Shown here piece after piece: positions 41,381 to 51,927 of a stretch of DNA of 64,000 nt. Numbering within the stretch: position 1 is the stretch's first letter; each line of letters begins with the position of its first letter. The translations under genes were made by a program, and so were the position numbers. Under the pieces are notes generated by a model, which worked only from the letters and a program-made list of their open reading frames with translations, was not told where the DNA came from and did no database searches. Origin of the DNA: an uncultured Gemmatimonadales bacterium (lineage in GTDB: Bacteria; Gemmatimonadota; Gemmatimonadetes; Longimicrobiales; RSA9); assembly GCA_963741945.1 (NCBI GenBank), contig CAVUKA010000003.1, positions 384,001 to 448,000 on the forward strand, in the 5' to 3' direction.

Positions 41381-42979
41381 CTACGGTCGACGGCTCGATT
41401 CCTCGGCGCTCACCATCCGCGCCAGCTCGACCCGCCGGACCTTCCCGCTCCCCGTCAGGGGGAACGAGTCGAAGAAGCGGACAAGATCCGGGACCTTGAA
41501 ATCCGCCAACGCGTTCCGGCACCAATCCCTGATTTCCTCGCCGGTGATGATGGCGCCTTCGACCGGCACCACACACGCGCATACCTGCTCGCCGAGTACC
41601 TCGTGCGGCAGCCCGACTACGGCCACGTCCATCACGGCCGGGTGGGCGTGCAGTCGGTCCTCGACTTCACGGGGGTACACGTTGAACCCCCCGCGGATGA
41701 TGAGCTCCTTTCGACGACCCACGAGATGGAGATAGCCCTCCTCGTCGATCATGCCCAGGTCGCCCGTCTGGAAGTAGCCGTCGTCATCGAACGCGTGCGA
41801 CGTCTCCCCCGGCTGGCGATAGTAGCCCTTCATCACGCCGGGGCCTTTTACCCCGATCTCTCCCAAACTTTCCAGCGGCAGCAGGCTGCCGTCGAAATCC
41901 AGGATCCGAACGTCAATGTCCGGTAGCGGCTTCCCGACCGTGAACACCTTCTTCTCTTCCGGGTCGGTGGGCCGCGTCATGGCCACCGTCAATGCGGTCT
42001 CCGTGAGCGAATAGGCGACGCACAGCTCTGGACACAGCTCCTTGCGGATCCGCCGGACCAGGTCATCGCCCACCGGCGCGCCCGCCACGATGCCGGTGCG
42101 CAGCGAGCTCAGGTCGTAGGACCGCTCCTCCAGCTCGCGCAGCTCCGTGATGAACACCGTGGGAACGCCGTAATGCACCGTCGCCCGATGCTCCTCGATG
42201 AGCGACAGCGCCGCTGCAGGCTCGAACGTCTCCTGCAGCACGAGAGTACCTCCGGCAATCAGTGTGCCGAGGATCCCCGGCCCCAGACCGAAGACGTGGA
42301 ACACGGTGGTGACGCCGAACGTCACATCGTCCGGCCGCAGCCCGATGGCGTCGGCCGTGGCCGCCGCCGTCTCCAGGAGGTTGGCATGGGTGAGCGCCAC
42401 CCCCTTCGGCTTCCCCATGGTCCCGGACGTGTACAGGATCGCGAACGTGTCGTCCGGCTTCGCCTGCACCGGCTCGAACGACCGACCCTCTCCGCTGGAG
42501 AGCAGGTCTTCGAACTGGTAGATCCGGTCGTCGTACCAGAGGTCCGCCTCCCCCACGGTCACCAGGTACTGCAGCTCCGGGAGCGAGGTGAGGAACCCCT
42601 CGAACAGCTCGAGGTAGTCCACGCCGTTGAAGTCCTCGGCCGAGACCACGACCGCAGCTTCCGAGTGCCGGAGCATGTATTGCAGCTCCGGCATCGTGTA
42701 GCGGGGGTTCAGCGGGACGATCACGGCCCCGAGCTTGGCGGCCGCGAACAGCGAGATGACGAACTCCGTCCAGTTCGGCAGATCCAGCGCCATGCGGTCG
42801 CCGGGTTCAATGCCCAGTTCCCGCAGCGCCGCGGCCAGCGCCGTGGAGCGCTCGTCCACCTGACGGTACGTGAGCCGGCGGTTCCCTGAAATCAAGAAGA
42901 CGCGGTCGGCGTCGTCCGCGACCCGCGCCCTCAGCGCTTCGGCGACCGTACGTCCCTTAATGCGCTCGACGAGCGCCAT
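41381..42979 (-). CDS. Long-chain fatty acid--CoA ligase-like adenylate-forming enzyme
   Basis: YTSGTMGKPKG, YSLTE, TGDLG, GRRKELIIRGG and GSGKV motifs. Confidence 0.9.
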   Translation of the reverse strand: MALVERIKGRTVAEALRARVADDADRVFLISGNRRLTYRQVDERSTALAAALRELGIEPGDRMALDLPNWTEFVISLFAAAKLGAVIVPLNPRYTMPELQYMLRHSEAAVVVSAEDFNGVDYLELFEGFLTSLPELQYLVTVGEADLWYDDRIYQFEDLLSSGEGRSFEPVQAKPDDTFAILYTSGTMGKPKGVALTHANLLETAAATADAIGLRPDDVTFGVTTVFHVFGLGPGILGTLIAGGTLVLQETFEPAAALSLIEEHRATVHYGVPTVFITELRELEERSYDLSSLRTGIVAGAPVGDDLVRRIRKELCPELCVAYSLTETALTVAMTRPTDPEEKKVFTVGKPLPDIDVRILDFDGSLLPLESLGEIGVKGPGVMKGYYRQPGETSHAFDDDGYFQTGDLGMIDEEGYLHLVGRRKELIIRGGFNVYPREVEDRLHAHPAVMDVAVVGLPHEVLGEQVCACVVPVEGAIITGEEIRDWCRNALADFKVPDLVRFFDSFPLTGSGKVRRVELARMVSAEESSRRP

Positions 42980-43098
42980 CACCCCTCCGTCCGGAGTCCT
43001 GGACCGGTGCGCCGCTCCTCGCGCGCGCACCCTGGATCGAAAACCCGCCCCAAAAACCGCAGAAACATAGTCGCGGCGCAGAGGACCGTCAAACGCCG

Positions 43099-44247
43099 TC
43101 AGCCGCCCGGATTCCCGCCCCGGCACGCGGCCAGGGCTGCCGTGACCACCGCATCGGGCAGCGCATGCGTCCACGCGCCCGCGTCGGTTCTCGCCACTTC
43201 ACCCACCCGCGTCAGCAGCGCGTAGCGGATGGCGCCCGCCCGCGCTTTCTTGTCCGATCGCGCCGCGTCCAGCACCGCCGCCGGCTCCGCATCCGCGGGC
43301 AGGCGGGTGGGCAGCCCGAACGCCGTGAGCGCCTGCGCCACACGCGTGGCGGTGCCGGGTGCCGTGATCCCCGCGCGCTCCCCCGCCATGGCCTCCGCCA
43401 CCATCCCCACGGCGACCCCTTCGCCGTGCGGGGTGCGATAATCCGAGAGCAGCTCCAGGGCGTGCCCGATGGTGTGCCCGAAGTTCAGCACTGCCCGCTC
43501 CCCCGCTTCCAGCACGTCACGGGCGATGACGCCCGTCTTGATCCGGACGGAGCCGGCCACCAGCGCGGCCAGCGCCACGTCGTCGCGTTCGAAGATGGCC
43601 GGCGCGTCGGCCACCAGCCGCTGAAGGTACCCCGGATCCGCGATCACGCCATGCTTCACCGCCTCGGCCGCGCCCGAGCGCAGCTCCGGGTCCGGGAGCG
43701 TGGTGAGGAACCGCGGGTCCACCACCACCAGCCGGGGCTGATGGAAGGCGCCCACCAGGTTCTTGCCGGCCCGGAGATCGAGACCCGTCTTCCCCCCGAG
43801 CGACGCATCCACCATCGCGAGCAGCGTGGTGGGCACCTGGACGAACGTGATGCCGCGGGCGAACGTGGCCGCGGCGAAGCCGGCCAGGTCACCGGTGACG
43901 CCGCCACCCAGCGCGATGATGCACCCATCCCGGCCGGCCCCGAGCGCGCCCAGCTCCTCCACCAGCTCCGACCACCGCGCCAGCGTCTTGTGCTCCTCAC
44001 CCGCGCGCAGCCGCACGACGTCCGCCCTCAGCCCGGCATCCCGGAGATGCCCGAGCACGGTCTCGCCGTGAAGTCCGGCAACGGTGTCGTCGCAGACCAG
44101 GATGTAGCGCTGCGCGGGTGCGTGGCGCTCCAGCACCGCGGGGAGCCGCTCCGCCACGCCGGCACCGATGACGATGTCGCACCGCTCCACCGGCCGGGGC
44201 AGCGCCAGGGACAGCAGCGCTTCCCCGACGTCGAGATCCCCGGTCAT
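43099..44247 (-). CDS. aroB: 3-dehydroquinate synthase
   Basis: GGGVTGDLAGF, VPTTLLAMVD, GGKTG, LNFGHTIGHALE and HGEGV motifs. Confidence 0.93.
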   Translation of the reverse strand: MTGDLDVGEALLSLALPRPVERCDIVIGAGVAERLPAVLERHAPAQRYILVCDDTVAGLHGETVLGHLRDAGLRADVVRLRAGEEHKTLARWSELVEELGALGAGRDGCIIALGGGVTGDLAGFAAATFARGITFVQVPTTLLAMVDASLGGKTGLDLRAGKNLVGAFHQPRLVVVDPRFLTTLPDPELRSGAAEAVKHGVIADPGYLQRLVADAPAIFERDDVALAALVAGSVRIKTGVIARDVLEAGERAVLNFGHTIGHALELLSDYRTPHGEGVAVGMVAEAMAGERAGITAPGTATRVAQALTAFGLPTRLPADAEPAAVLDAARSDKKARAGAIRYALLTRVGEVARTDAGAWTHALPDAVVTAALAACRGGNPGG

Positions 44248-45386
44248 TTCGGCCGCTGCCCTTGCCGACGATCGAACCCCGTCCCCAGCATCGTCTCCCC
44301 GACCAGCCACGCCATCACCTCCTCGAACGACTCCGTCTCCGTGTGCACGCGGCGCAGCCGCTCCGCCCCGTTGCCCCGATCCAGTATCGTCTCCACCCGC
44401 TCCAGCACGTCCGACTCCCCCACGGCGGACGCCAGCGGGGCCGCCCGGTCCAGGATCCGCCGCACCGCCGCGCGCACGGCCGTCCTCCCGCTCGGCGACT
44501 CCGGGTCCGTGAGTTCCCCGTCCAGCCCGAACCTCGCCGCCTGCCACTCGTTCTCCGTCAGCACCTCCCGCCATGCGTCCGGGTTCAACCCGCCGGAGCC
44601 GGGAAGCTCGATCTCCCCCTCCGCGACGCCCATGACCACGAGCTTCGCCAGGGCAGCGATCGTCGCCGCGTCATCCAGCCGCGGGCACACGTCCATCGCC
44701 CGGAACTCCAGCGTCGGGTACGAGGCGTGGGGACGCAGGCTCCAGTACACGCTCCCCCGGTCCCGGATCGCCTTGCTTCGCAACAGCAGGGCGATGAACT
44801 CGCGGTACTCCTCGTCGCTCTCGAAGCGCGGCGGCACCCCCGTGTACGGGTACTGCCGCCACAGGATCGCCCGGTAGGATGCGAAGCCGGTATCCTCCGC
44901 GTCCAGGAACGGCGAGCTGGCGGAGAGGGCGAGCAGGTGCGGGATGAAGCCTCGCACCTTCTCCATGAGCTGCGTCCGGTCGATCTCGTCGGGCACGCCC
45001 ACGTGCACGTGCATGCCGAAGATGTTGACTTCCCGAGCGATCCGGTCGTGCCGCTCCACGATGGCCCGGTACCGCTTGCTCGGGTGGATCCCGGCGACCT
45101 GCCACGGGCTGAACGGGTGCAGCCCCGCCGCGGCGATCTCCAGTCCCTCCGCCGCCGTCGTCGTCGCCGCCTGGAAACGCTGGCGGCGCAGCTCCCGCTC
45201 CACTTCTTCCGTGGTGCCGCACACGGGGGTCCCGACCTCGATGGTGGTCTCGTGCAGCTCACCACGCAGCTCGTCCGCCCAGTCCGTGGCCAGGACGTCC
45301 GACGCGCGGCTCCGCAGGGCCCCCGTCTCGGGGTCCACCAGCTGGTACTCCTCCTCCACACCCATGGTGTAGTGGTGCCTCGCCAT
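44244..45386 (-). CDS. YbdK/GCS2 family carboxylate-amine ligase
   Basis: TMGVEEEYQLVD, FGMHVHVG, ALSASSPF, WSLRP and TLEFRAMD motifs. Confidence 0.9.
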   Translation of the reverse strand: MARHHYTMGVEEEYQLVDPETGALRSRASDVLATDWADELRGELHETTIEVGTPVCGTTEEVERELRRQRFQAATTTAAEGLEIAAAGLHPFSPWQVAGIHPSKRYRAIVERHDRIAREVNIFGMHVHVGVPDEIDRTQLMEKVRGFIPHLLALSASSPFLDAEDTGFASYRAILWRQYPYTGVPPRFESDEEYREFIALLLRSKAIRDRGSVYWSLRPHASYPTLEFRAMDVCPRLDDAATIAALAKLVVMGVAEGEIELPGSGGLNPDAWREVLTENEWQAARFGLDGELTDPESPSGRTAVRAAVRRILDRAAPLASAVGESDVLERVETILDRGNGAERLRRVHTETESFEEVMAWLVGETMLGTGFDRRQGQRPK

Positions 45387-45649
45387 GCGACCGCGCCGCC
45401 TCCTCGCTGCCTCGCCTTTCGAAGTAGTGCAACGGTACGGATGCGGGTGTGCCGGTGGCAAATGCGGGGCCGGTCCCGCCCGGCGCGCACGATCGCGCAA
45501 CCAGACTCTTTCTTTTGTCGGCGCCGCGATTATATTTCGCTTCGACGGAGCGCGCCGGGTCGAACGGGGCGCTGCGGCCACAAGATGGAACGGCTAACGA
45601 CCGCGTCTCTTTGCAGAGGCGCTTTTTCATGGGGGGTTCGGACGGCCTG

Positions 45650-46684
45650 ATGCCGCTGAATATCGGGTTGGCCTACAATCAGAAGCCTGAGCCGGAGGAC
45701 GAGCCTCCCGGTACCAGGCGTCCCCTCGACGATCGATTCGCCGAGTGGGACGACCCCTCGACGATCACAGCCGTCGAGGCTGCGCTGGCCGAAGCCGGCC
45801 ACGTGATCCGTCTGGAAGCCGACGAGGACTTCCCCGCCCGACTCCGGGCGAGCAGGCCGGACATCGTGTTCAACATCGCGGAAGGGCTGCACGGCCCGAA
45901 CCGGGAAGCGCACGTGCCGGCCATCTGCGAGTTCTTCGACATCCCCTATACCGGCAGTGACCCGCTCGCCCTGGCGCTGAGCCTGGACAAGCGTCGCGCC
46001 AAGGATGTCTTCCGCACGGCCGGCATTCCGGCCCCGGCGGGGGTGACCGTGACGCGGCCGGAGGAGCGTCAGAGCGCACTCCACGTCCCGGTCCCGGCAC
46101 TGGTGAAGCCGCTGTTCGAGGGATCGAGCAAGGGGATCCCCGAGAGCGCGCTGTGCGAGAGCCCGGATGACGTGCTGGTCCGGGTCGACGCGATCCTGGC
46201 GGAGTACGGGCAGCCGGCACTCGTGGAAGCGTTCCTCCCGGGCCGCGAATTCACCTGCGCCGTGCTGGGGAACGGTGACACGGCCCGTGCGCTCCCCCTG
46301 GTCGAGATCCGCTTCGATGCTCTCCCGGTCGGCGCGAAGCCGATCTACGGCTACGAAGCGAAGTGGGTGTGGGACACGCCCGAGCGCCCGCTCTCCATCT
46401 TCAGCTGTCCGGCCCCGGTCGATCCCGCGCTGGGCGCGCTCGTGGAGCGGACCGCCGTGGCAGCGTTCAACGCCCTCGGCTGTCGCGACTGGGCCAGGGT
46501 CGACCTGCGGCTCGACGACACCGGGCTCCCCCACGTGCTCGAGATCAACCCGCTTCCCGGGGTCCTCCCCGACCCGGACCAGAACTCCTGCTATCCCAAG
46601 GCCGCCCGCGCGGCGGGGCTGGACTACGGGCAGATGATCCGATCCGTGCTGGACGCGGCGCTGGAACGGTACGGGCTGCGATGA
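45650..46684 (+). CDS. D-Ala-D-Ala ligase-like ATP-grasp protein (non-canonical) 1
   Basis: FNIAEG, IPYTGS, DK, VKP.FEGSSKG, PGREF, RVD and EINPLPG motifs; lacks the GGxSxEH and LHG motifs of true Ddl. Confidence 0.88.
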   Translation: MPLNIGLAYNQKPEPEDEPPGTRRPLDDRFAEWDDPSTITAVEAALAEAGHVIRLEADEDFPARLRASRPDIVFNIAEGLHGPNREAHVPAICEFFDIPYTGSDPLALALSLDKRRAKDVFRTAGIPAPAGVTVTRPEERQSALHVPVPALVKPLFEGSSKGIPESALCESPDDVLVRVDAILAEYGQPALVEAFLPGREFTCAVLGNGDTARALPLVEIRFDALPVGAKPIYGYEAKWVWDTPERPLSIFSCPAPVDPALGALVERTAVAAFNALGCRDWARVDLRLDDTGLPHVLEINPLPGVLPDPDQNSCYPKAARAAGLDYGQMIRSVLDAALERYGLR

Positions 46685-47787
46685 GGATCGCCGTGGTCTA
46701 CGACCGCGCCGCCGACGCCCGGGAGGGCGAAGGCCCGACCCCTGGCCGTGACGCCGCGGCCGCATCCACCGGCCGCTTCGCCCGGGACCTCCGGCCCACC
46801 ACCGGCCGCGCGCCGGCGCCGGACGCGGCCCTCTCCACGACCGGCGCGGGGGCGGCGGGCACCCCGGCCACGGGCGGAGCGGGCGCCGCCCCGGATGTCG
46901 CCGGGGTGAGGGAGGCCGTCGACGCCGTCGTCGAGAGCCTCGTTCGGCTCGGTCACGCCGCGTTCCCCGTGGCCGTGCACGCGCCGCTGGAGCGGTTCCT
47001 GACCCGGCTCGGTGGCGTGGACCTGGTCTTCAACCTGGCCGAGGGCCTCAATGGCCGGGCGGAGCACGAGCCGCGACTCGCCGCGCTCATGGAGCTGGCC
47101 GGGCGCCCGATCACCGGCGCGTCCTCCGACTCGCTGGCGCTCTGCCGCCGCAAGGACCGCGTGAACGCACTCGCCGAGAGCCGCGGTCTGGCCGTGCCGC
47201 CCTGGATCGTGGCGCGCCCATCCGGCGCCGGCTCGTCCGCGCCCCCGTGGACGCTCTTCCCCGCCATCGTCAAGCCCGTGGGCGAGGACGGGTCCGTGGG
47301 CATCCACGAGGACTCGGTCGTCGAGAACGACGTTGAGCTGAGCGCTGCCCTGGACCGCGCGCGCACCGACGTGCTCGTCCAGGCCTTCGTGGCGGGCCGC
47401 GAGTTCAATGTGGGCTTCGTCGGCGACGTCGCGCTCCCCCTCTCCGAAATCGTCTTCGCCGGCGCGCAGCGCGTGGTCAGCTACGCCGCCAAGTGGAGCC
47501 CGGGCTCCACCGACGACCTGTCCACGCTACCCGTCTGCCCCGCGCGCGTGACCACCACGTTCCACGACCACGCCGTCGCGATGGCCCGTGAAGCGTGGAG
47601 CGCCGTGGGTGGCCGCGGCTACGGCCGCGTGGACCTGCGCACCGACGCGGTCGGACGGCTGTATCTGCTCGAGGTGAACCCCAACCCGGACCTCGCCCCC
47701 TCGGCCGGCCTCGCCCGCATGGCCCGCGTGGCCGGCTGGGCATTTGACGACCTGGTGGCGCGAATCATGGAAGAAGCGGTCAGATGA
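46681..47787 (+). CDS. D-Ala-D-Ala ligase-like ATP-grasp protein (non-canonical) 2
   Basis: FNLAEG, VKP..EDGSVGI, GREF, YAAKW, RVDLR and EVNPNP motifs; ATGA overlap with the preceding gene. Confidence 0.88.
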   Translation: MRIAVVYDRAADAREGEGPTPGRDAAAASTGRFARDLRPTTGRAPAPDAALSTTGAGAAGTPATGGAGAAPDVAGVREAVDAVVESLVRLGHAAFPVAVHAPLERFLTRLGGVDLVFNLAEGLNGRAEHEPRLAALMELAGRPITGASSDSLALCRRKDRVNALAESRGLAVPPWIVARPSGAGSSAPPWTLFPAIVKPVGEDGSVGIHEDSVVENDVELSAALDRARTDVLVQAFVAGREFNVGFVGDVALPLSEIVFAGAQRVVSYAAKWSPGSTDDLSTLPVCPARVTTTFHDHAVAMAREAWSAVGGRGYGRVDLRTDAVGRLYLLEVNPNPDLAPSAGLARMARVAGWAFDDLVARIMEEAVR

Positions 47788-48296
47788 GCGTCAGCTCCCT
47801 TCAAGACGACACGGCCACGCGGCTGCGGGCGCTGCAGCCTGGAGACCGGCCGGCGCTCGAGCGCCTGGTCCGCTCGGTCGAGCTTTTCAGCGCCGCGGAG
47901 CAAGACGTGGCCATGGAAGTGCTGGACGCATACATGGAGCACCCCGGGAAGGACTACCACGCGCTGGGCGCCTTCACCCATCGCGGCGACCTCCTGGGCT
48001 ACGCGTGCTACGGCCCGACGCCGTGCACCGAAGGCACCTGGGACCTGTACTGGATCGCGGTATCCGGTGAGTCCCGGGGCCGAGGCATCGGAACCCTGCT
48101 GATGGAGGAGATCGAACGAAGGCTCGTCGAACAACACGCTCGACTCGTGCTCATCGAGACCGCTTCGCGCGCCGATTACGCCCCCACCCGGGCGTTCTAC
48201 GAGCGGCGCGACTACGAGGTGGTCGCACGGGTCCCGGATTTCTACGCGCCGGGCGACGATCGCGTGATCTTCGCCCGCAAATTTCCCAGCGTTTGA
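47784..48296 (+). CDS. GNAT family N-acetyltransferase
   Basis: LYWIAV...RGRGIG (motif A), RAFYERRDY; ATGA overlap. Confidence 0.9.
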   Translation: MSVSSLQDDTATRLRALQPGDRPALERLVRSVELFSAAEQDVAMEVLDAYMEHPGKDYHALGAFTHRGDLLGYACYGPTPCTEGTWDLYWIAVSGESRGRGIGTLLMEEIERRLVEQHARLVLIETASRADYAPTRAFYERRDYEVVARVPDFYAPGDDRVIFARKFPSV

Positions 48297-48310
48297 ACGA
48301 CGAGAGAGCC

Positions 48311-49732
48311 ATGTCAAACTGGCAAGAGACCCTGAAACAGAGCGTCACGACGGTAGACGAGCTCATCGACCGCTTCGGCCCCGAGAACGTGGACCGTGAA
48401 GCGGTCGAGAAAGCCATCGCCAAGTTCAACCTCCGCATCACACCGGCCGCGCTGGCGCAGATCAAGACGCCCGGCGACTGGGCGTGGAACCAGTACGTGC
48501 CCACGGGCGCGGAGAACGAGATCGTGGACGGGATCGTGGATTCCCTGGACGAGGATGCCGATTCACCCGTCCCGAACATCACGCATCGCTACCCGGACCG
48601 GGTGCTCTTCCTGGTGTCGCCCGTGTGCTCCACCTACTGCCGGTTCTGCACCCGACGGCGGAAGGTGGGCGACCCGGAGAAGATCCCGCTCAACCAGTTC
48701 GACGCCGCGTTCGCCTACCTGCGCGAGCACACCGAGGTTCGCGACGTGGTGCTGAGTGGCGGAGACCCGTTCATGCTGAGCGACCGCCGCATCGAGTACT
48801 TCCTCTCGACGCTCCGGTCCATCCCGCACATCGAGATCATCCGCATCCACTCCCGCGTGCCGAACCACCTCCCGGAGCGGGTCACACCCGAACTGGCGGA
48901 GATGATCCGGAAGTACCACCCCGTGTACGTGAACGTGCACTTCAACCACCCCGACGAGCTCACGCCGGAGTCCGTCAAAGCGCTCGGCCTGCTCGCCGAC
49001 GCCGGTATCCCGCTCGGCTCCCAGAGCGTGCTCCTCAAGGGCGTGAACGACGACCCGGCCATCATGAAGCGGCTCATGCAGAAGCTGCTCGTGGCCCGGG
49101 TCAAGCCGTACTACATCTACCAGGCCGACGTGGTGGCCGGCGGAGAGCACTTCCGCACTTCCGTGCAGAAGGGTATCGAGATCATCCAGGCCATCCGCGG
49201 CTGGACGTCCGGCCTCGGCGTCCCCCACTACGTCATCGATGCCCCCGGCGGCGGCGGGAAGATCCCGATCCTCCCCGAGTACGTGCAGGCGGTCACCGAC
49301 AGCGAGATCGTGCTCCGCAACTACGCGGGCGAGGAGTTCCGCTACCCGCTGCCGCAGGAGCCCGTGCCGGCGACAGGGACCGGGTGCGATATCCCGAGTA
49401 TCCCCAACCGCATCGCCGCCCGCACCGCCCGCGTGGGGGGCGTCGCCGGCGGGACGGGCGGCGCCGGCCTGCGCCGCGACGGCGCCAAGGGGCGCACAGG
49501 CAGCCGCAGCCGACAGAAAAAGGCCGTCAACGGCAACGGCGGCGGACACCGCAACGGTCGCGGAAGCGCGGACAGCGGATCGCGCAAAGCCGCGGCCCCA
49601 GCGGCCTCCAACGGGCAGCGCGCTGGTGGGATCACCGCGAACAGTCGGCGAAACGGAAACGGAAACGGCCATGCCGACCCCGCCCAGCTCACCTTCGAGC
49701 CGCTGCCCGGGATCGTGCCGATGGACATGTAG
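48311..49732 (+). CDS. kamA: KamA family radical SAM enzyme, probably lysine 2,3-aminomutase, with a disordered C-terminal tail
   Basis: HRYPDR, CSTYCRFCTR (CxxxCxxC), LSGGDP, QSVLLKGVND, YIYQAD and DAPGGGGKIP (PLP lysine). Confidence 0.9.
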   Translation: MSNWQETLKQSVTTVDELIDRFGPENVDREAVEKAIAKFNLRITPAALAQIKTPGDWAWNQYVPTGAENEIVDGIVDSLDEDADSPVPNITHRYPDRVLFLVSPVCSTYCRFCTRRRKVGDPEKIPLNQFDAAFAYLREHTEVRDVVLSGGDPFMLSDRRIEYFLSTLRSIPHIEIIRIHSRVPNHLPERVTPELAEMIRKYHPVYVNVHFNHPDELTPESVKALGLLADAGIPLGSQSVLLKGVNDDPAIMKRLMQKLLVARVKPYYIYQADVVAGGEHFRTSVQKGIEIIQAIRGWTSGLGVPHYVIDAPGGGGKIPILPEYVQAVTDSEIVLRNYAGEEFRYPLPQEPVPATGTGCDIPSIPNRIAARTARVGGVAGGTGGAGLRRDGAKGRTGSRSRQKKAVNGNGGGHRNGRGSADSGSRKAAAPAASNGQRAGGITANSRRNGNGNGHADPAQLTFEPLPGIVPMDM

Positions 49733-50066: not shown

Positions 50067-51395
50067 TCAGGGCCCTGGCTGATCGATTCCCACGAGCGAC
50101 GGCACGGGGATGTCGATCAGGGGGACGCCAGCCGATGCGGCCGTCTCCACCACCCGGGCGACCGGCCGCCCGTCCACCTCCAGCCGTTCCACGCCACCCG
50201 TCCGCCCCGGACGTTTCGCGAGGACGCGGCGGTAGTCGGCGGCGAAGCGGTCGGCGGAAGCGACGTCGTCCCAGACGGAGTACCACACCAGCGCCTGGGC
50301 GCCGGCGGGCCCGTCCAGAAGCGCGTACCGGTCGCCGTCCCAGCCGCGGGCGAACCCGGCCGACCGTGCGGTTCCGGCCCCGCGGGCAGTGATGGCGCTG
50401 TCGGCGTGCTCGCCGAGGTACTCCGAGAGGATGACGGAGGTCTCCATCTCGCCGAACGTGTTGGTGTAGGCCACCCGCCAGCCATCGGCCGCGGCTCCGA
50501 GCGTGAGCTCCGAGGGTGGGTCGCGCGTGTCGAGGAACCGGTCCAAGGGGCGCATGACCTGCTCGGTGGACTGGGGGAGGAGGTCGCGGAACGGGATGGG
50601 GATGGCGTCGCCCTGGCGGTGGCGGAAGAGCGCCTGTACGAAGACGGCGCCGCCCAGGTAGGGGAAGAGGAGCGTCTCCTTGATGATGCGGGGAGCGCGC
50701 TGGAAGACGGGGAACTGGTCGTTCTGCGACTCGAGGGCGGGTCCCATCACGTCGCGCATGTCGGGGAGGTCCCCCGGGTCGGCGGGCTTGCCGGTGAGCT
50801 CGGCGGTCTGGATGGCCACCATGACCAGCGTCGCCTGCCCCTCGGCCGCGGCCTGCGCCGCCATCTGGCGGTCGTTGCCGCGGTCCGGCGCCACGAGCGA
50901 GTCGAGGTCGGTGTACTGGTCCTGGAGAGCGTGGACCAGCTCGTGGGCGACGACGGGCGCCGCGGAGTCCGCGGGCACCCCCTCCAGGACGTACAGCCGA
51001 TCCGTTTTCGGGTCGTAGTAGCCGATCACCTGTTCGGTGTACAGCGCCAGGAGCGTCTCCCGCAGGTCCAGCGTGTCGGGGATCAGCCCGAGCGCCCTGT
51101 ACACCCGCTCCGTGCCGTGCAGCACTTCCGGCCCGAGCTCCTCGTCGAGCTGCGCATCGATGAAAACGCGCGCGTCCGCCCGCGACTGGAGCCGGTAGGC
51201 CACGGGATGTCGCACGGGCAGTCCGCTGGTGCGCGAGATGACGGGGACCAGCGAATCGATCATCACGGCGAGGCCCGCGGAGTCGAGCGGGACCCGCGCG
51301 CCCCGGCGTGCGCCGCCGCCCCGGGCATCGCACGCGGCGGCGGCCGCGACCGCGAGCGTCATCACCAGGACTGCCGTCCTAGGGCGCATCCGCAT
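50067..51395 (-). CDS. Putative lipoprotein zinc metallopeptidase (HExxH)
   Basis: Lipoprotein-like signal (AAAAC); GYYDP, AHELVHALQDQ, EGQAT, FPY and PQSTEQ motifs. Confidence 0.7.
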   Translation of the reverse strand: MRMRPRTAVLVMTLAVAAAAACDARGGGARRGARVPLDSAGLAVMIDSLVPVISRTSGLPVRHPVAYRLQSRADARVFIDAQLDEELGPEVLHGTERVYRALGLIPDTLDLRETLLALYTEQVIGYYDPKTDRLYVLEGVPADSAAPVVAHELVHALQDQYTDLDSLVAPDRGNDRQMAAQAAAEGQATLVMVAIQTAELTGKPADPGDLPDMRDVMGPALESQNDQFPVFQRAPRIIKETLLFPYLGGAVFVQALFRHRQGDAIPIPFRDLLPQSTEQVMRPLDRFLDTRDPPSELTLGAAADGWRVAYTNTFGEMETSVILSEYLGEHADSAITARGAGTARSAGFARGWDGDRYALLDGPAGAQALVWYSVWDDVASADRFAADYRRVLAKRPGRTGGVERLEVDGRPVARVVETAASAGVPLIDIPVPSLVGIDQPGP

Positions 51396-51927
51396 CTTCC
51401 TCCTCCGACGGCAGCCGTGTGTCCCCCTGGAGCAGCGTCCCGCCGGAGGCGACCGCGCGCATCCCTGGCGCTGGCACCGCCGCCTCCGCCTCCGCCAGGG
51501 GCCGTCCGGTGGTGGGATCGACAAGGTCGGGATCCAGCTCCAGGAGCGGGACGAGGACGAACGCCCGCTCGCGCATGCGTGGGTGCGGTATGGTGAGCCC
51601 GGGGCGGTCGATCCGCCGGTCGTCGTAGAGAAGGATGTCCACGTCCAGCGTGCGGGGCCCGTTGCGGACGGTGCGCTCACGCCCGCGCTCACGTTCCAGG
51701 CGACGCCCGAGCGCCAGCAGGTCTTCCGGCTCCAGCGATGTCTCCAGCCGCACGACCATGTTCAGGAATCGGGGCTGATCGGTGTAGCCGACCGGCTCGG
51801 TCTCGTAGACGGTGGACACGCCCGTGAGCGCGACGGCGGGCTCGCGGGCGAGAGCGTGGAGCGCGTGGCGCAGGTGCCGCGCGCGCGCGCCGACATTCGT
51901 CCCGAGGCCGAGCCAGGCAGTGGCCAC
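51379..51927 (-). CDS. folK: 6-hydroxymethyl-7,8-dihydropterin pyrophosphokinase
   Basis: LGLGTNVG, YETEP, FLN, GPRTLDVDIL and PHPRMRERAFVL motifs. Confidence 0.95.
   Translation of the reverse strand: MATAWLGLGTNVGARARHLRHALHALAREPAVALTGVSTVYETEPVGYTDQPRFLNMVVRLETSLEPEDLLALGRRLERERGRERTVRNGPRTLDVDILLYDDRRIDRPGLTIPHPRMRERAFVLVPLLELDPDLVDPTTGRPLAEAEAAVPAPGMRAVASGGTLLQGDTRLPSEEEDADAP

Follow-up and report, generated by a model that had tools for sequence, protein, structure and literature searches.

A four-gene cassette at 45650-49732 of the window (by which we mean the whole 64-kb stretch of uncultured Gemmatimonadales DNA analysed here) is probably, at moderate confidence, a self-contained operon that makes a small amide or peptide from beta-lysine, a route distinct from both D-Ala-D-Ala synthesis and the AblA/AblB route to N-epsilon-acetyl-beta-lysine. 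The cassette encodes two ATP-grasp ligases with the fold of D-alanine--D-alanine ligase (Ddl), referred to from this point on as Lig1 and Lig2, followed by an acetyltransferase (GNAT) and a lysine 2,3-aminomutase (KamA) of the radical S-adenosylmethionine (SAM) and pyridoxal phosphate (PLP) type (Table 1). A new beta-lysine pathway that requires ligases is the best reading because neither ligase is the cell's Ddl, the four genes are co-conserved and variously fused, KamA retains its lysine-binding aspartates, and the GNAT is not AblB.

The genes are tightly packed, with ATGA overlaps at 46681-46684 (Lig1/Lig2) and 47784-47787 (Lig2/GNAT) and exactly 14 nt between the GNAT stop and the kamA ATG (48297-48310). 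This arrangement of four same-strand genes, along with all motifs cited in a preliminary description made from the same DNA, was found again in the sequence: FNIAEG begins at residue 74 of Lig1 and FNLAEG at residue 117 of Lig2, and KamA carries CSTYCRFC at 106, YIYQAD at 268, YVIDAP at 307 and GGGGK at 313. A domain search of the four open reading frames (ORFs) returned ATP-grasp, GNAT and KamA domains only. Third-position G+C of the four genes is 0.83-0.92, in a window of about 70% G+C that belongs to contig 3 of a 4.09-Mb genome (8 contigs, 96.7% complete). The records of the nearest database proteins bear Gemmatimonadota or Longimicrobiales labels, and the ligase genes are at present annotated as D-alanine--D-alanine ligase. 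In one database copy of Lig1 (P0005, 351 aa) the ATG at 45629 was chosen as the start; 45650 is the better choice, since relatives read ATA where the window has the ATG at 45629.

Conservation within the phylum was tallied over 201 sampled genomes (the unpublished G057, G157 and G182 included), with E <= 1e-60 as the threshold for a Lig1 orthologue. Such an orthologue occurs in 97 of them, in a distribution clumped by family (77/96 in f4, 17/38 in f5, 0/23 in f2). Among these 97 Lig1-positive genomes, 83 possess a close KamA (E <= 1e-140), 11 possess only a divergent one (36-39% identity), one (G138) has a frame-shifted copy, and two have none, namely G129 and G035, the latter with its locus at a contig end. 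No full-length close KamA lacking a Lig1 partner was found among the 201 genomes. More distant KamA-family matches do occur in 19 genomes without Lig1, the best being 49-50% identical, a contig-end fragment in G183 aside. When 20 phylum loci were fetched, the order and strand Lig1-Lig2-GNAT-KamA were intact in 17 and KamA was broken in one.

Beyond the phylum, a scan that took one genome per species and retained the best 80 loci, with phyla assigned by record-title labels, gave 47 loci labelled Gemmatimonadota and 33 labelled otherwise. The latter fall to Acidobacteriota, Rokubacteria/Methylomirabilota, Ignavibacteriota, Bacteroidota, and Desulfuromonadales or other Deltaproteobacteria. Binning errors may account for two contigs from metagenome-assembled genomes among the best 80, one labelled Bacillota and the other as a cyanobacterium. 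All four genes stand in the same order and on the same strand in 61 of the 80 (three of the 61 with a divergent KamA-like gene), while six loci stop after one or two ligases, five of these being cut by a contig end. Clustering of the flanking genes revealed no fifth gene common across phyla; flanks are lineage-specific and include an FAD-linked oxidase, RecG and DnaG, among others. The preliminary description had taken the four genes as one pathway, and in this survey of gene neighbourhoods they are indeed co-conserved, under at least six phylum labels.

The genes are also joined in single polypeptides. KamA is fused to a Lig1-like domain in P0136, P0178, P0240, P0279 and P0280, and in reversed order in P0174; ligase-ligase fusions occur in P0127, P0129, P0146 and many others; and a ligase is fused to GNAT in P0268, with a single Lig2-GNAT ORF in loci L060 and L068.

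Table 1. Features of the cassette and its surroundings (window positions).
Feature	Position	Strand	Length	Description
Lig1	45650-46684	+	344 aa	Ddl-fold ATP-grasp ligase
Lig2	46681-47787	+	368 aa	second, differing Ddl-fold ATP-grasp ligase
GNAT	47784-48296	+	170 aa	small acetyltransferase
KamA	48311-49732	+	473 aa	KamA-family radical SAM/PLP lysine 2,3-aminomutase
Promoter-like -10 box	45529-45534	+		ATTATA; sequence pattern only; ~95 nt upstream of the leader U-tract
Terminator-like leader	45603-45627	+		8-bp GC-rich hairpin (45603-45622), then TTTTT (45623-45627); from terminator scan
Divergent cluster	41381-45386	-		GCS2-family carboxylate-amine ligase, dehydroquinate synthase (DHQS)-like sugar-phosphate cyclase, AMP-dependent ligase, then NYN/OST-HTH protein
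Convergent ORF	50067-51692	-	541 aa	weak DUF6782 (putative metallopeptidase) match

Two ligases set apart from Ddl

Both ligases match the Pfam domain PF07478 (Dala_Dala_lig_C), with E-values of 8.7e-30 for Lig1 and 7e-27 for Lig2. The best Ddl family model, NF002378, gives them 179.7 and 128.2 bits, respectively, against a cut-off of 243, and both score far below the cut-off of every equivalog and Van model. The preliminary description had supposed that a canonical ddl would exist apart from the cassette, and one was found about 95 kb away, so the cassette ligases are not the only ddl of the genome. The product of this gene scores 187.5 bits to PF07478 and bears GGTSEER, ALHG, YEAKY and SASL, which is to say every Ddl signature residue. 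Canonical Ddl was likewise present in 25 of 25 sampled phylum genomes, cassette carriers among them.

The separation is also evident in a FastTree phylogeny (LG+gamma, 329 columns, midpoint root) of 82 sequences. Of the 97 Lig1 and 90 Lig2 sequences extracted, the sample took 31 and 27, respectively, from 31 loci picked by hand to cover a range of taxa, with fused Lig2-GNAT ORFs excluded. The 24 canonical Ddl were Escherichia coli DdlB, the Ddl of the genome itself and 22 more from the phylum. Lig1 (31/31, support 0.90), Lig2 (27/27, 0.98) and Ddl (24/24, 1.0) form three separate clades, a three-group tree that carries no information on which two of the three are sisters. Judged by sequence, neither Lig1 nor Lig2 is the cell's housekeeping Ddl.

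AlphaFold models of the two proteins have a mean predicted local distance difference test (pLDDT) score of 92.3 for Lig1 and 82.7 for Lig2, and all top Protein Data Bank (PDB) matches listed by Foldseek are Ddl for both, with target-normalised TM-scores (TMt) of 0.78-0.84 within the top ten. Lig2 contains an insert rich in Ala, Gly, Pro and Thr (residues 16-68, window 46726-46884) that is predicted to be disordered (pLDDT < 50). This insert is lineage-specific and mostly without counterpart in the orthologues, which are 306-367 aa long.

Active-site residues were tallied in 97 Lig1 and 90 Lig2 orthologues against 24 canonical Ddl, that is, E. coli DdlB (locus L144) as the alignment reference and 23 others (Table 2). 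We take the roles of the DdlB residues in the ATP, Mg, acyl phosphate, donor-amine and acceptor-carboxylate sites to be those assigned in the Ddl literature. K97, K144, E187, K215, R255, D257 and N272 are invariant in all 97 Lig1 and all 90 Lig2 sequences, and with the residues for ATP, Mg and acyl phosphate thus intact both proteins look like working enzymes. The substrate motifs are another matter. That these had been replaced, with FNxAEG in their place, was an observation of the preliminary description, and the alignment agrees: FNxAEG occupies the position of the Ddl sequence F-x-A-L-H-G and turns H63 into Glu. Lig1 additionally has an invariant AEWD motif near its N-terminus (residues 31-34). 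Each ligase has its own pocket signature, fixed across phyla. From these substitutions, Lig1 and Lig2 look like enzymes that share a rebuilt donor-amine site and have two unlike acceptor sites.

Table 2. Residues of the ligases at positions of the DdlB active site.
DdlB residue	Canonical Ddl	Lig1	Lig2
K97, K144, K215, R255, D257, N272	kept, 24/24	kept	kept
E187	E in 19/24	kept	kept
E270	E	E, 97/97	E, 82/90; D, 8/90
E15, R16 (GGxSxER stretch)	E, R, 24/24	no conserved counterpart	no conserved counterpart
H63	H, 24/24	E	E
Y216	Y, 24/24	W	W
E68	E, 24/24	R	variable
G149	G in E. coli DdlB	G in window Lig1	D
S150	S, 24/24	S	A or G
G276	G, 24/24	G	D
S281	S, 24/24	S	A
L282	L in 19/24	C	G

Complex prediction covered one pair, Lig1-Lig2, folded from alignments that we built ourselves. 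The pair scored 0.70, compared with 0.02 for the best of three controls. In calibration, 116 of 157 solved complexes came up to the score mark used, as did 2 of 215 mismatched pairs, counts that are only rough for author-built alignments such as these. Contact agreement between runs was at least 95%, and partner pLDDT was at least 73. The predicted interface lies mainly between the N-terminal domains (Lig1 59-135 and Lig2 102-168, with a few extra contacts at Lig2 307-310) and presumably resembles that of the Ddl homodimer. On these models, Lig1 and Lig2 probably sit together as a Ddl-like heterodimer.

A proposed route from beta-lysine to a candidate product

KamA passes the cut-off of its family model, TIGR00238 (274.6 bits against 199.2), and matches the Pfam domains Radical_SAM and LAM_C. 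Its best NCBIfam model is AblA (TIGR03820), at 433.5 bits under a cut-off of 525.4; EpmB (TIGR03821) follows at 222.6 under 369.3, and the glutamate and arginine mutase models also fall short of their cut-offs. The protein aligns to the solved lysine 2,3-aminomutase (PDB 2a5h) with an E-value of 5e-115, such that YIYQAD and YVIDAP face QCD and VVDAP and the GGGGK lysine is in place. The aspartates of these motifs correspond to D293 and D330 of 2a5h, which we take, by that numbering, to hold the epsilon-amine of lysine. As anticipated from the motifs alone, the lysine-binding aspartates are present together with CxxxCxxC and the PLP lysine. Neither aspartate, nor the PLP lysine, nor any of the three cluster cysteines varies among the KamA orthologues of the module (75 of 75). 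No counterpart of the C-terminal cysteines of 2a5h, presumably zinc ligands, was seen in this alignment. KamA is the sole KamA-family gene of the 96.7% complete genome.

The catalytic core of KamA extends from residue 1 to about 360 and is followed by a 113-aa tail rich in Gly, Ala, Arg and Asn (49391-49729) with a net charge of +13. Third-position G+C is 0.93 in the core and 0.66 in the tail. The tail is matched over its full length in L059 and ends in VPMDM, as do those of L059 and L060; low-complexity tails rich in Lys and Arg occur on most KamA orthologues (L040-L138), in Gemmatimonadota, Bacteroidota, Ignavibacteriota and Rokubacteria. Some Gemmatimonadales have, instead of the close KamA, a divergent member of the KamA family (33-39% identity), carried by L072 (10631-11971), L073, L079, G045, G122, G145 and eight further genomes. 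Its gene lies either directly 3' of GNAT (L072, L073 and L079) or 10-18 kb off, and the protein keeps both aspartates in the two cases examined (L072 and L140). In locus L058 (G138:C4:204507-205534) the cassette KamA is split across three frames, so that either the gene is broken or the assembly is faulty.

The GNAT matches PF00583 (E = 3.3e-12) and has an acetyl-CoA loop, RGRGIG, at residue 98. Its sole close solved relative is a structural-genomics entry (PDB 2r7h, E = 1.2e-32) whose name is merely putative, and its best NCBIfam model, RimI, gives 42.4 bits under a cut-off of 86.4. The AblB model TIGR03827 had no match to it at E <= 0.01; over the whole genome, the best AblB score was 24.6 bits, away from the cassette, against a cut-off of 205.1 that the same model passes in two control genomes, Methanosarcina and Bacillus. 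By these profile scores, the GNAT is not a member of the AblB family. Genome-wide searches found no BKACE (Kce), and the best GenX/EpmA score was 258.4 bits against a cut-off of 286.9, from a 586-aa frame that is probably LysRS. The remark in the preliminary description that neither lysine-fermentation genes nor epmA adjoin the cassette therefore extends to the whole genome, which lacks BKACE and any EpmA passing its cut-off. The suggestion that the GNAT might serve in self-protection found no support, there being no transporter, resistance gene or other biosynthetic gene conserved beside the cassette.

These enzymes suggest the following pathway. KamA, to judge by its conserved residues, would convert L-lysine to beta-lysine, Lig1 and Lig2 would each form one amide bond with the carboxylate activated as acyl phosphate, and the GNAT would acetylate a remaining free amine. 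The order KamA, Lig1, Lig2, GNAT is inferred because KamA is seen fused to a Lig1-like domain, and Lig2 to GNAT. The acidic donor-amine site common to both ligases would fit a cationic donor with a displaced amine, such as beta-lysine. An amino acid is the expected acceptor of Lig1, which keeps the serine that holds the acceptor carboxylate in Ddl. In Lig2 this serine is gone and two aspartates have been gained, so that the expected acceptor is a cationic amine without a neighbouring carboxylate, for which a side-chain amine or a diamine would be candidates. By analogy, we would guess that the product is a cytoplasmic stress or compatible solute.

Several observations weigh against this pathway. 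Fusion partners can reflect mere gene adjacency, which makes them a weak guide to the order of steps, and the donor and acceptor assignments draw on an analogy with DdlB residues. The favourable heterodimer prediction may reflect mere likeness to solved Ddl homodimers, and would be compatible with two homodimers instead. Linkage is imperfect: in two of the 20 fetched phylum loci (genus g24) no KamA is adjacent and a divergent KamA-like gene lies 10-18 kb downstream, and among the best 80 cross-phylum loci nine have no adjacent KamA (one of which ends at GNAT) and four, all Rokubacteria/Methylomirabilota, are missing the GNAT. Flank and Rfam scans revealed no tie to salt or stress and no transporter, sensor or Rfam riboswitch beside the cassette.

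Should the beta-lysine pathway proposed here be correct, a new compound containing beta-lysine would be made by bacteria under at least six phylum labels: Gemmatimonadota, Acidobacteriota, Methylomirabilota/Rokubacteria, Ignavibacteriota, Bacteroidota and Desulfuromonadales-type Deltaproteobacteria. The Ddl family would gain a specificity class, perhaps an obligate heterodimer with two unlike active sites. Two kinds of annotation error would also come to light, namely the labelling of these ligases as D-alanine--D-alanine ligase and, if the pair in question belongs to such a cassette, the placing of a KamA/GNAT pair in the N-epsilon-acetyl-beta-lysine pathway. Full-text searches turned up no paper describing KamA in company with Ddl-like ligases and a GNAT; their coverage did not extend to a survey of ATP-grasp amidoligases (Mol BioSyst, 2009) that may bear on novelty. 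The cassette is small enough to be expressed whole, so the question is directly testable.

The simplest alternative is that KamA and the GNAT make N-epsilon-acetyl-beta-lysine, an osmolyte, as AblA and AblB do. The two genes adjoin each other, and the NCBIfam model that KamA matches best is that of AblA. Moreover, the genome paper of a Desulfuromonadales species infers synthesis of this osmolyte from neighbouring kamA and GNAT genes (PMC3543383), and loci labelled Desulfuromonadales bear the four-gene cassette. We nevertheless regard this as unlikely: KamA stays under the AblA cut-off, the GNAT is not AblB in a genome without any AblB that passes its cut-off, and the ligases, for which this osmolyte has no use, are co-conserved with KamA and fused to both KamA and GNAT.

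Two unlike amide-forming sites might instead build a beta-lysine oligomer or polymer, comparable to streptothricin-like chains or a cyanophycin-like store, with the GNAT as chain cap. One ligase would then extend the chain at the side-chain amine, while its partner would either use the beta-amine or attach some other residue. The Lig2 acceptor site, minus its carboxylate-binding serine and plus its aspartates, is what a side-chain amine would need. Ddl-type enzymes are known to form a single bond per substrate pair, however, and neither a depolymerase nor an export gene is conserved next to the cassette, which leaves oligomer synthesis improbable.

A further possibility is that the target is a macromolecule, with the ATP-grasp ligases beta-lysylating protein or RNA as an alternative to EpmA/EpmB. 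In favour of this, the genome has a single KamA-family gene and no EpmA above its cut-off; the KamA tails are rich in Lys and Arg in several phyla, and RimI is the best model for the GNAT, though well under its cut-off. On the other side, the ligases have the fold and pocket of a small-molecule ligase, no target gene is conserved nearby, and presence in 97 of 201 phylum genomes is unlike translation-factor modification. Macromolecule modification thus seems quite unlikely. The same low probability is given to a more specific form, in which acetylated beta-lysine would be put on protein or RNA while the polybasic KamA tail tethers the enzymes to ribosome or nucleic acid; if real, such a tethered system would be an EpmA-independent counterpart of EF-P beta-lysylation.

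The divergent genes that stand head to head with Lig1 in the window could place the cassette in a larger cluster, in which the GCS2 ligase, DHQS-like cyclase and AMP-dependent ligase contribute to a cyclitol or aminocyclitol bearing beta-lysine. The DHQS-like and AMP-ligase genes are found beside Lig1 in L039, L059, L062, L063 and L080 as well, GCS2 only in L059. None of these neighbours occurs, however, in the remaining 19 phylum loci or the remaining 76 cross-phylum loci, where the flanks are lineage-specific housekeeping genes (FAD oxidase, RecG, DnaG), and a shared cyclitol product appears decidedly improbable. As for Van-like ligases making an alternative cell-wall dipeptide or depsipeptide, the Ddl fold and Ddl-family matches fit, but the Van models listed, whose cut-offs are 495-775 bits, give 36.7-91.3, the D-Ala1 site has other residues, the ligase genes are strictly linked to KamA, and the cassette ORFs hold no domains beyond ATP-grasp, GNAT and KamA (no search was aimed at VanH or VanX), so that we give this very little credence.

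Leader region and neighbouring genes

The gene upstream of Lig1 is divergent and probably starts at the ATG at 45386 rather than the GTG at 45581, leaving an intergenic region of 263 nt. A strict sigma-70 scan found no promoter. The TATA-like box (Table 1) recurs in six of eight aligned close relatives, the window included, as ATTATA, ACTATA, GTTATA, CATTACA, GCTATA and CTAGAT; it was not found in the other two, L060 and L039.

The U-tract of the terminator-like leader runs on into CATGGGGGG, and the leader element stands 22 nt ahead of the start codon of Lig1. A single copy of the motif TTTTTCATRGGGG is present in the 64-kb window, against none in 100 shuffles, and the motif stands directly 5' of Lig1 in six related loci (five contig loci and G180). 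In all eight relatives a hairpin folds up to the U-tract, its stem differing in sequence from one relative to the next, and the RNAalifold consensus is weak (-4.06 kcal/mol) because the stems do not align. A hairpin with T5-7 within 150 nt 5' of Lig1 is present in 38 of 97 loci (L039, L059-L064, the window and 30 more), and the Gemmatimonadales leaders share the consensus GGCC-TTTTTT-GTAGAGG, mostly 13 nt before the start. Since the upstream gene is divergent, this leader is not its terminator. With no room for a promoter 3' of the hairpin and a divergent gene upstream, transcription must therefore read through the hairpin, an arrangement suggestive of attenuation or of regulation at the neighbouring ribosome-binding site. 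Cassette expression in Gemmatimonadota thus seems to run by way of such a leader. At gathering thresholds, no Rfam family matched the window or any of five loci, and no conserved aptamer-like sequence was seen 5' of the hairpin among the aligned relatives.

A 21-codon ORF, MERLTTASLCRGAFSWGVRTA (45590-45652), spans the leader hairpin, and its TGA overlaps the Lig1 ATG; L059 has a similar reading (…GAFFIGV…). The region is better taken as an RNA or DNA element than as a peptide, because its invariance is at the nucleotide level.

Among the genes of the divergent cluster, the arrangement of DHQS-like, AMP-ligase and NYN genes beside Lig1 is kept in five close relatives but not beyond, with GCS2 only in L059. 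The convergent ORF on the other side of the cassette also lies 3' of KamA in L039, L059 and L080.

Comparison with known systems

DdlB (PDB 2dln/1iov) resembles both ligases in fold, in the ATP-grasp catalytic residues and in the predicted dimer interface. It differs in the residues that Lig1 and Lig2 have lost (E15/R16) or exchanged (H63E and Y216W in both, with G276D and S281A also in Lig2), and the two ligases form clades of their own, additional to canonical Ddl.

Tandem double Ddl-like ligases of about 700 aa, with Myxococcota and Bdellovibrionota labels, have halves that are some 35-41% identical to Lig1. In one of these (P0127) the halves have Leu or Gln at the W216 position. KamA or GNAT lies within 6 kb in 0 of 80 such loci (L169-L248, metagenome contigs), and a family S58 (DmpA/BapA-type) peptidase is the next gene in 43 of the 80. 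The double ligases are a related but different system. DUF1015 lies upstream in 24 of their loci and Sua5/YrdC in 18. A link between S58 peptidases and the cassette itself was considered and rejected: S58 peptidases are carried by 179 of 201 phylum genomes, and in family f2 they are present in 22 of 23 whereas the cassette is found in 0 of 23; neither of the two S58 copies in the present genome is adjacent to the cassette.

Both the cassette and AblA/AblB, a two-gene route of methanogens and some bacteria, place a KamA-type lysine 2,3-aminomutase next to a GNAT. The cassette is distinguished by two additional, obligatorily linked ATP-grasp ligases, by a 170-aa GNAT that is not AblB, and by a KamA that falls under the AblA cut-off and has no visible counterpart of the C-terminal cysteines of 2a5h. 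From EpmA/EpmB the cassette differs in that its KamA is also under the EpmB cut-off, in a genome without an EpmA that passes its own.

Acetylation combined with ATP-dependent peptide-bond formation is a likeness to the synthesis of N-acetylglutaminylglutamine amide (NAGGN), in which Ngg and AsnO produce a small N-acetylated dipeptide osmoprotectant without ribosomes or non-ribosomal peptide synthetases (PMC8070244). There, however, Ngg is one bifunctional protein acting on glutamine, no aminomutase or beta-amino acid is involved, and an amidotransferase takes the place of the second ligase.

The pyrrolysine pathway offers a parallel of another kind. PylC is a Ddl-like enzyme that acylates the epsilon-amine of lysine, and PylB is not known to belong to the KamA family. 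No PylC chain appeared among the PDB sequence matches of the ligases at E <= 1e-5, and the cassette has no PylD, PylS or tRNA. What the two systems have in common is a working logic, not membership: in pyrrolysine synthesis, PylB carries out a radical SAM rearrangement of lysine, and PylC then joins the product to a second amine at the expense of ATP (PMC8225853).

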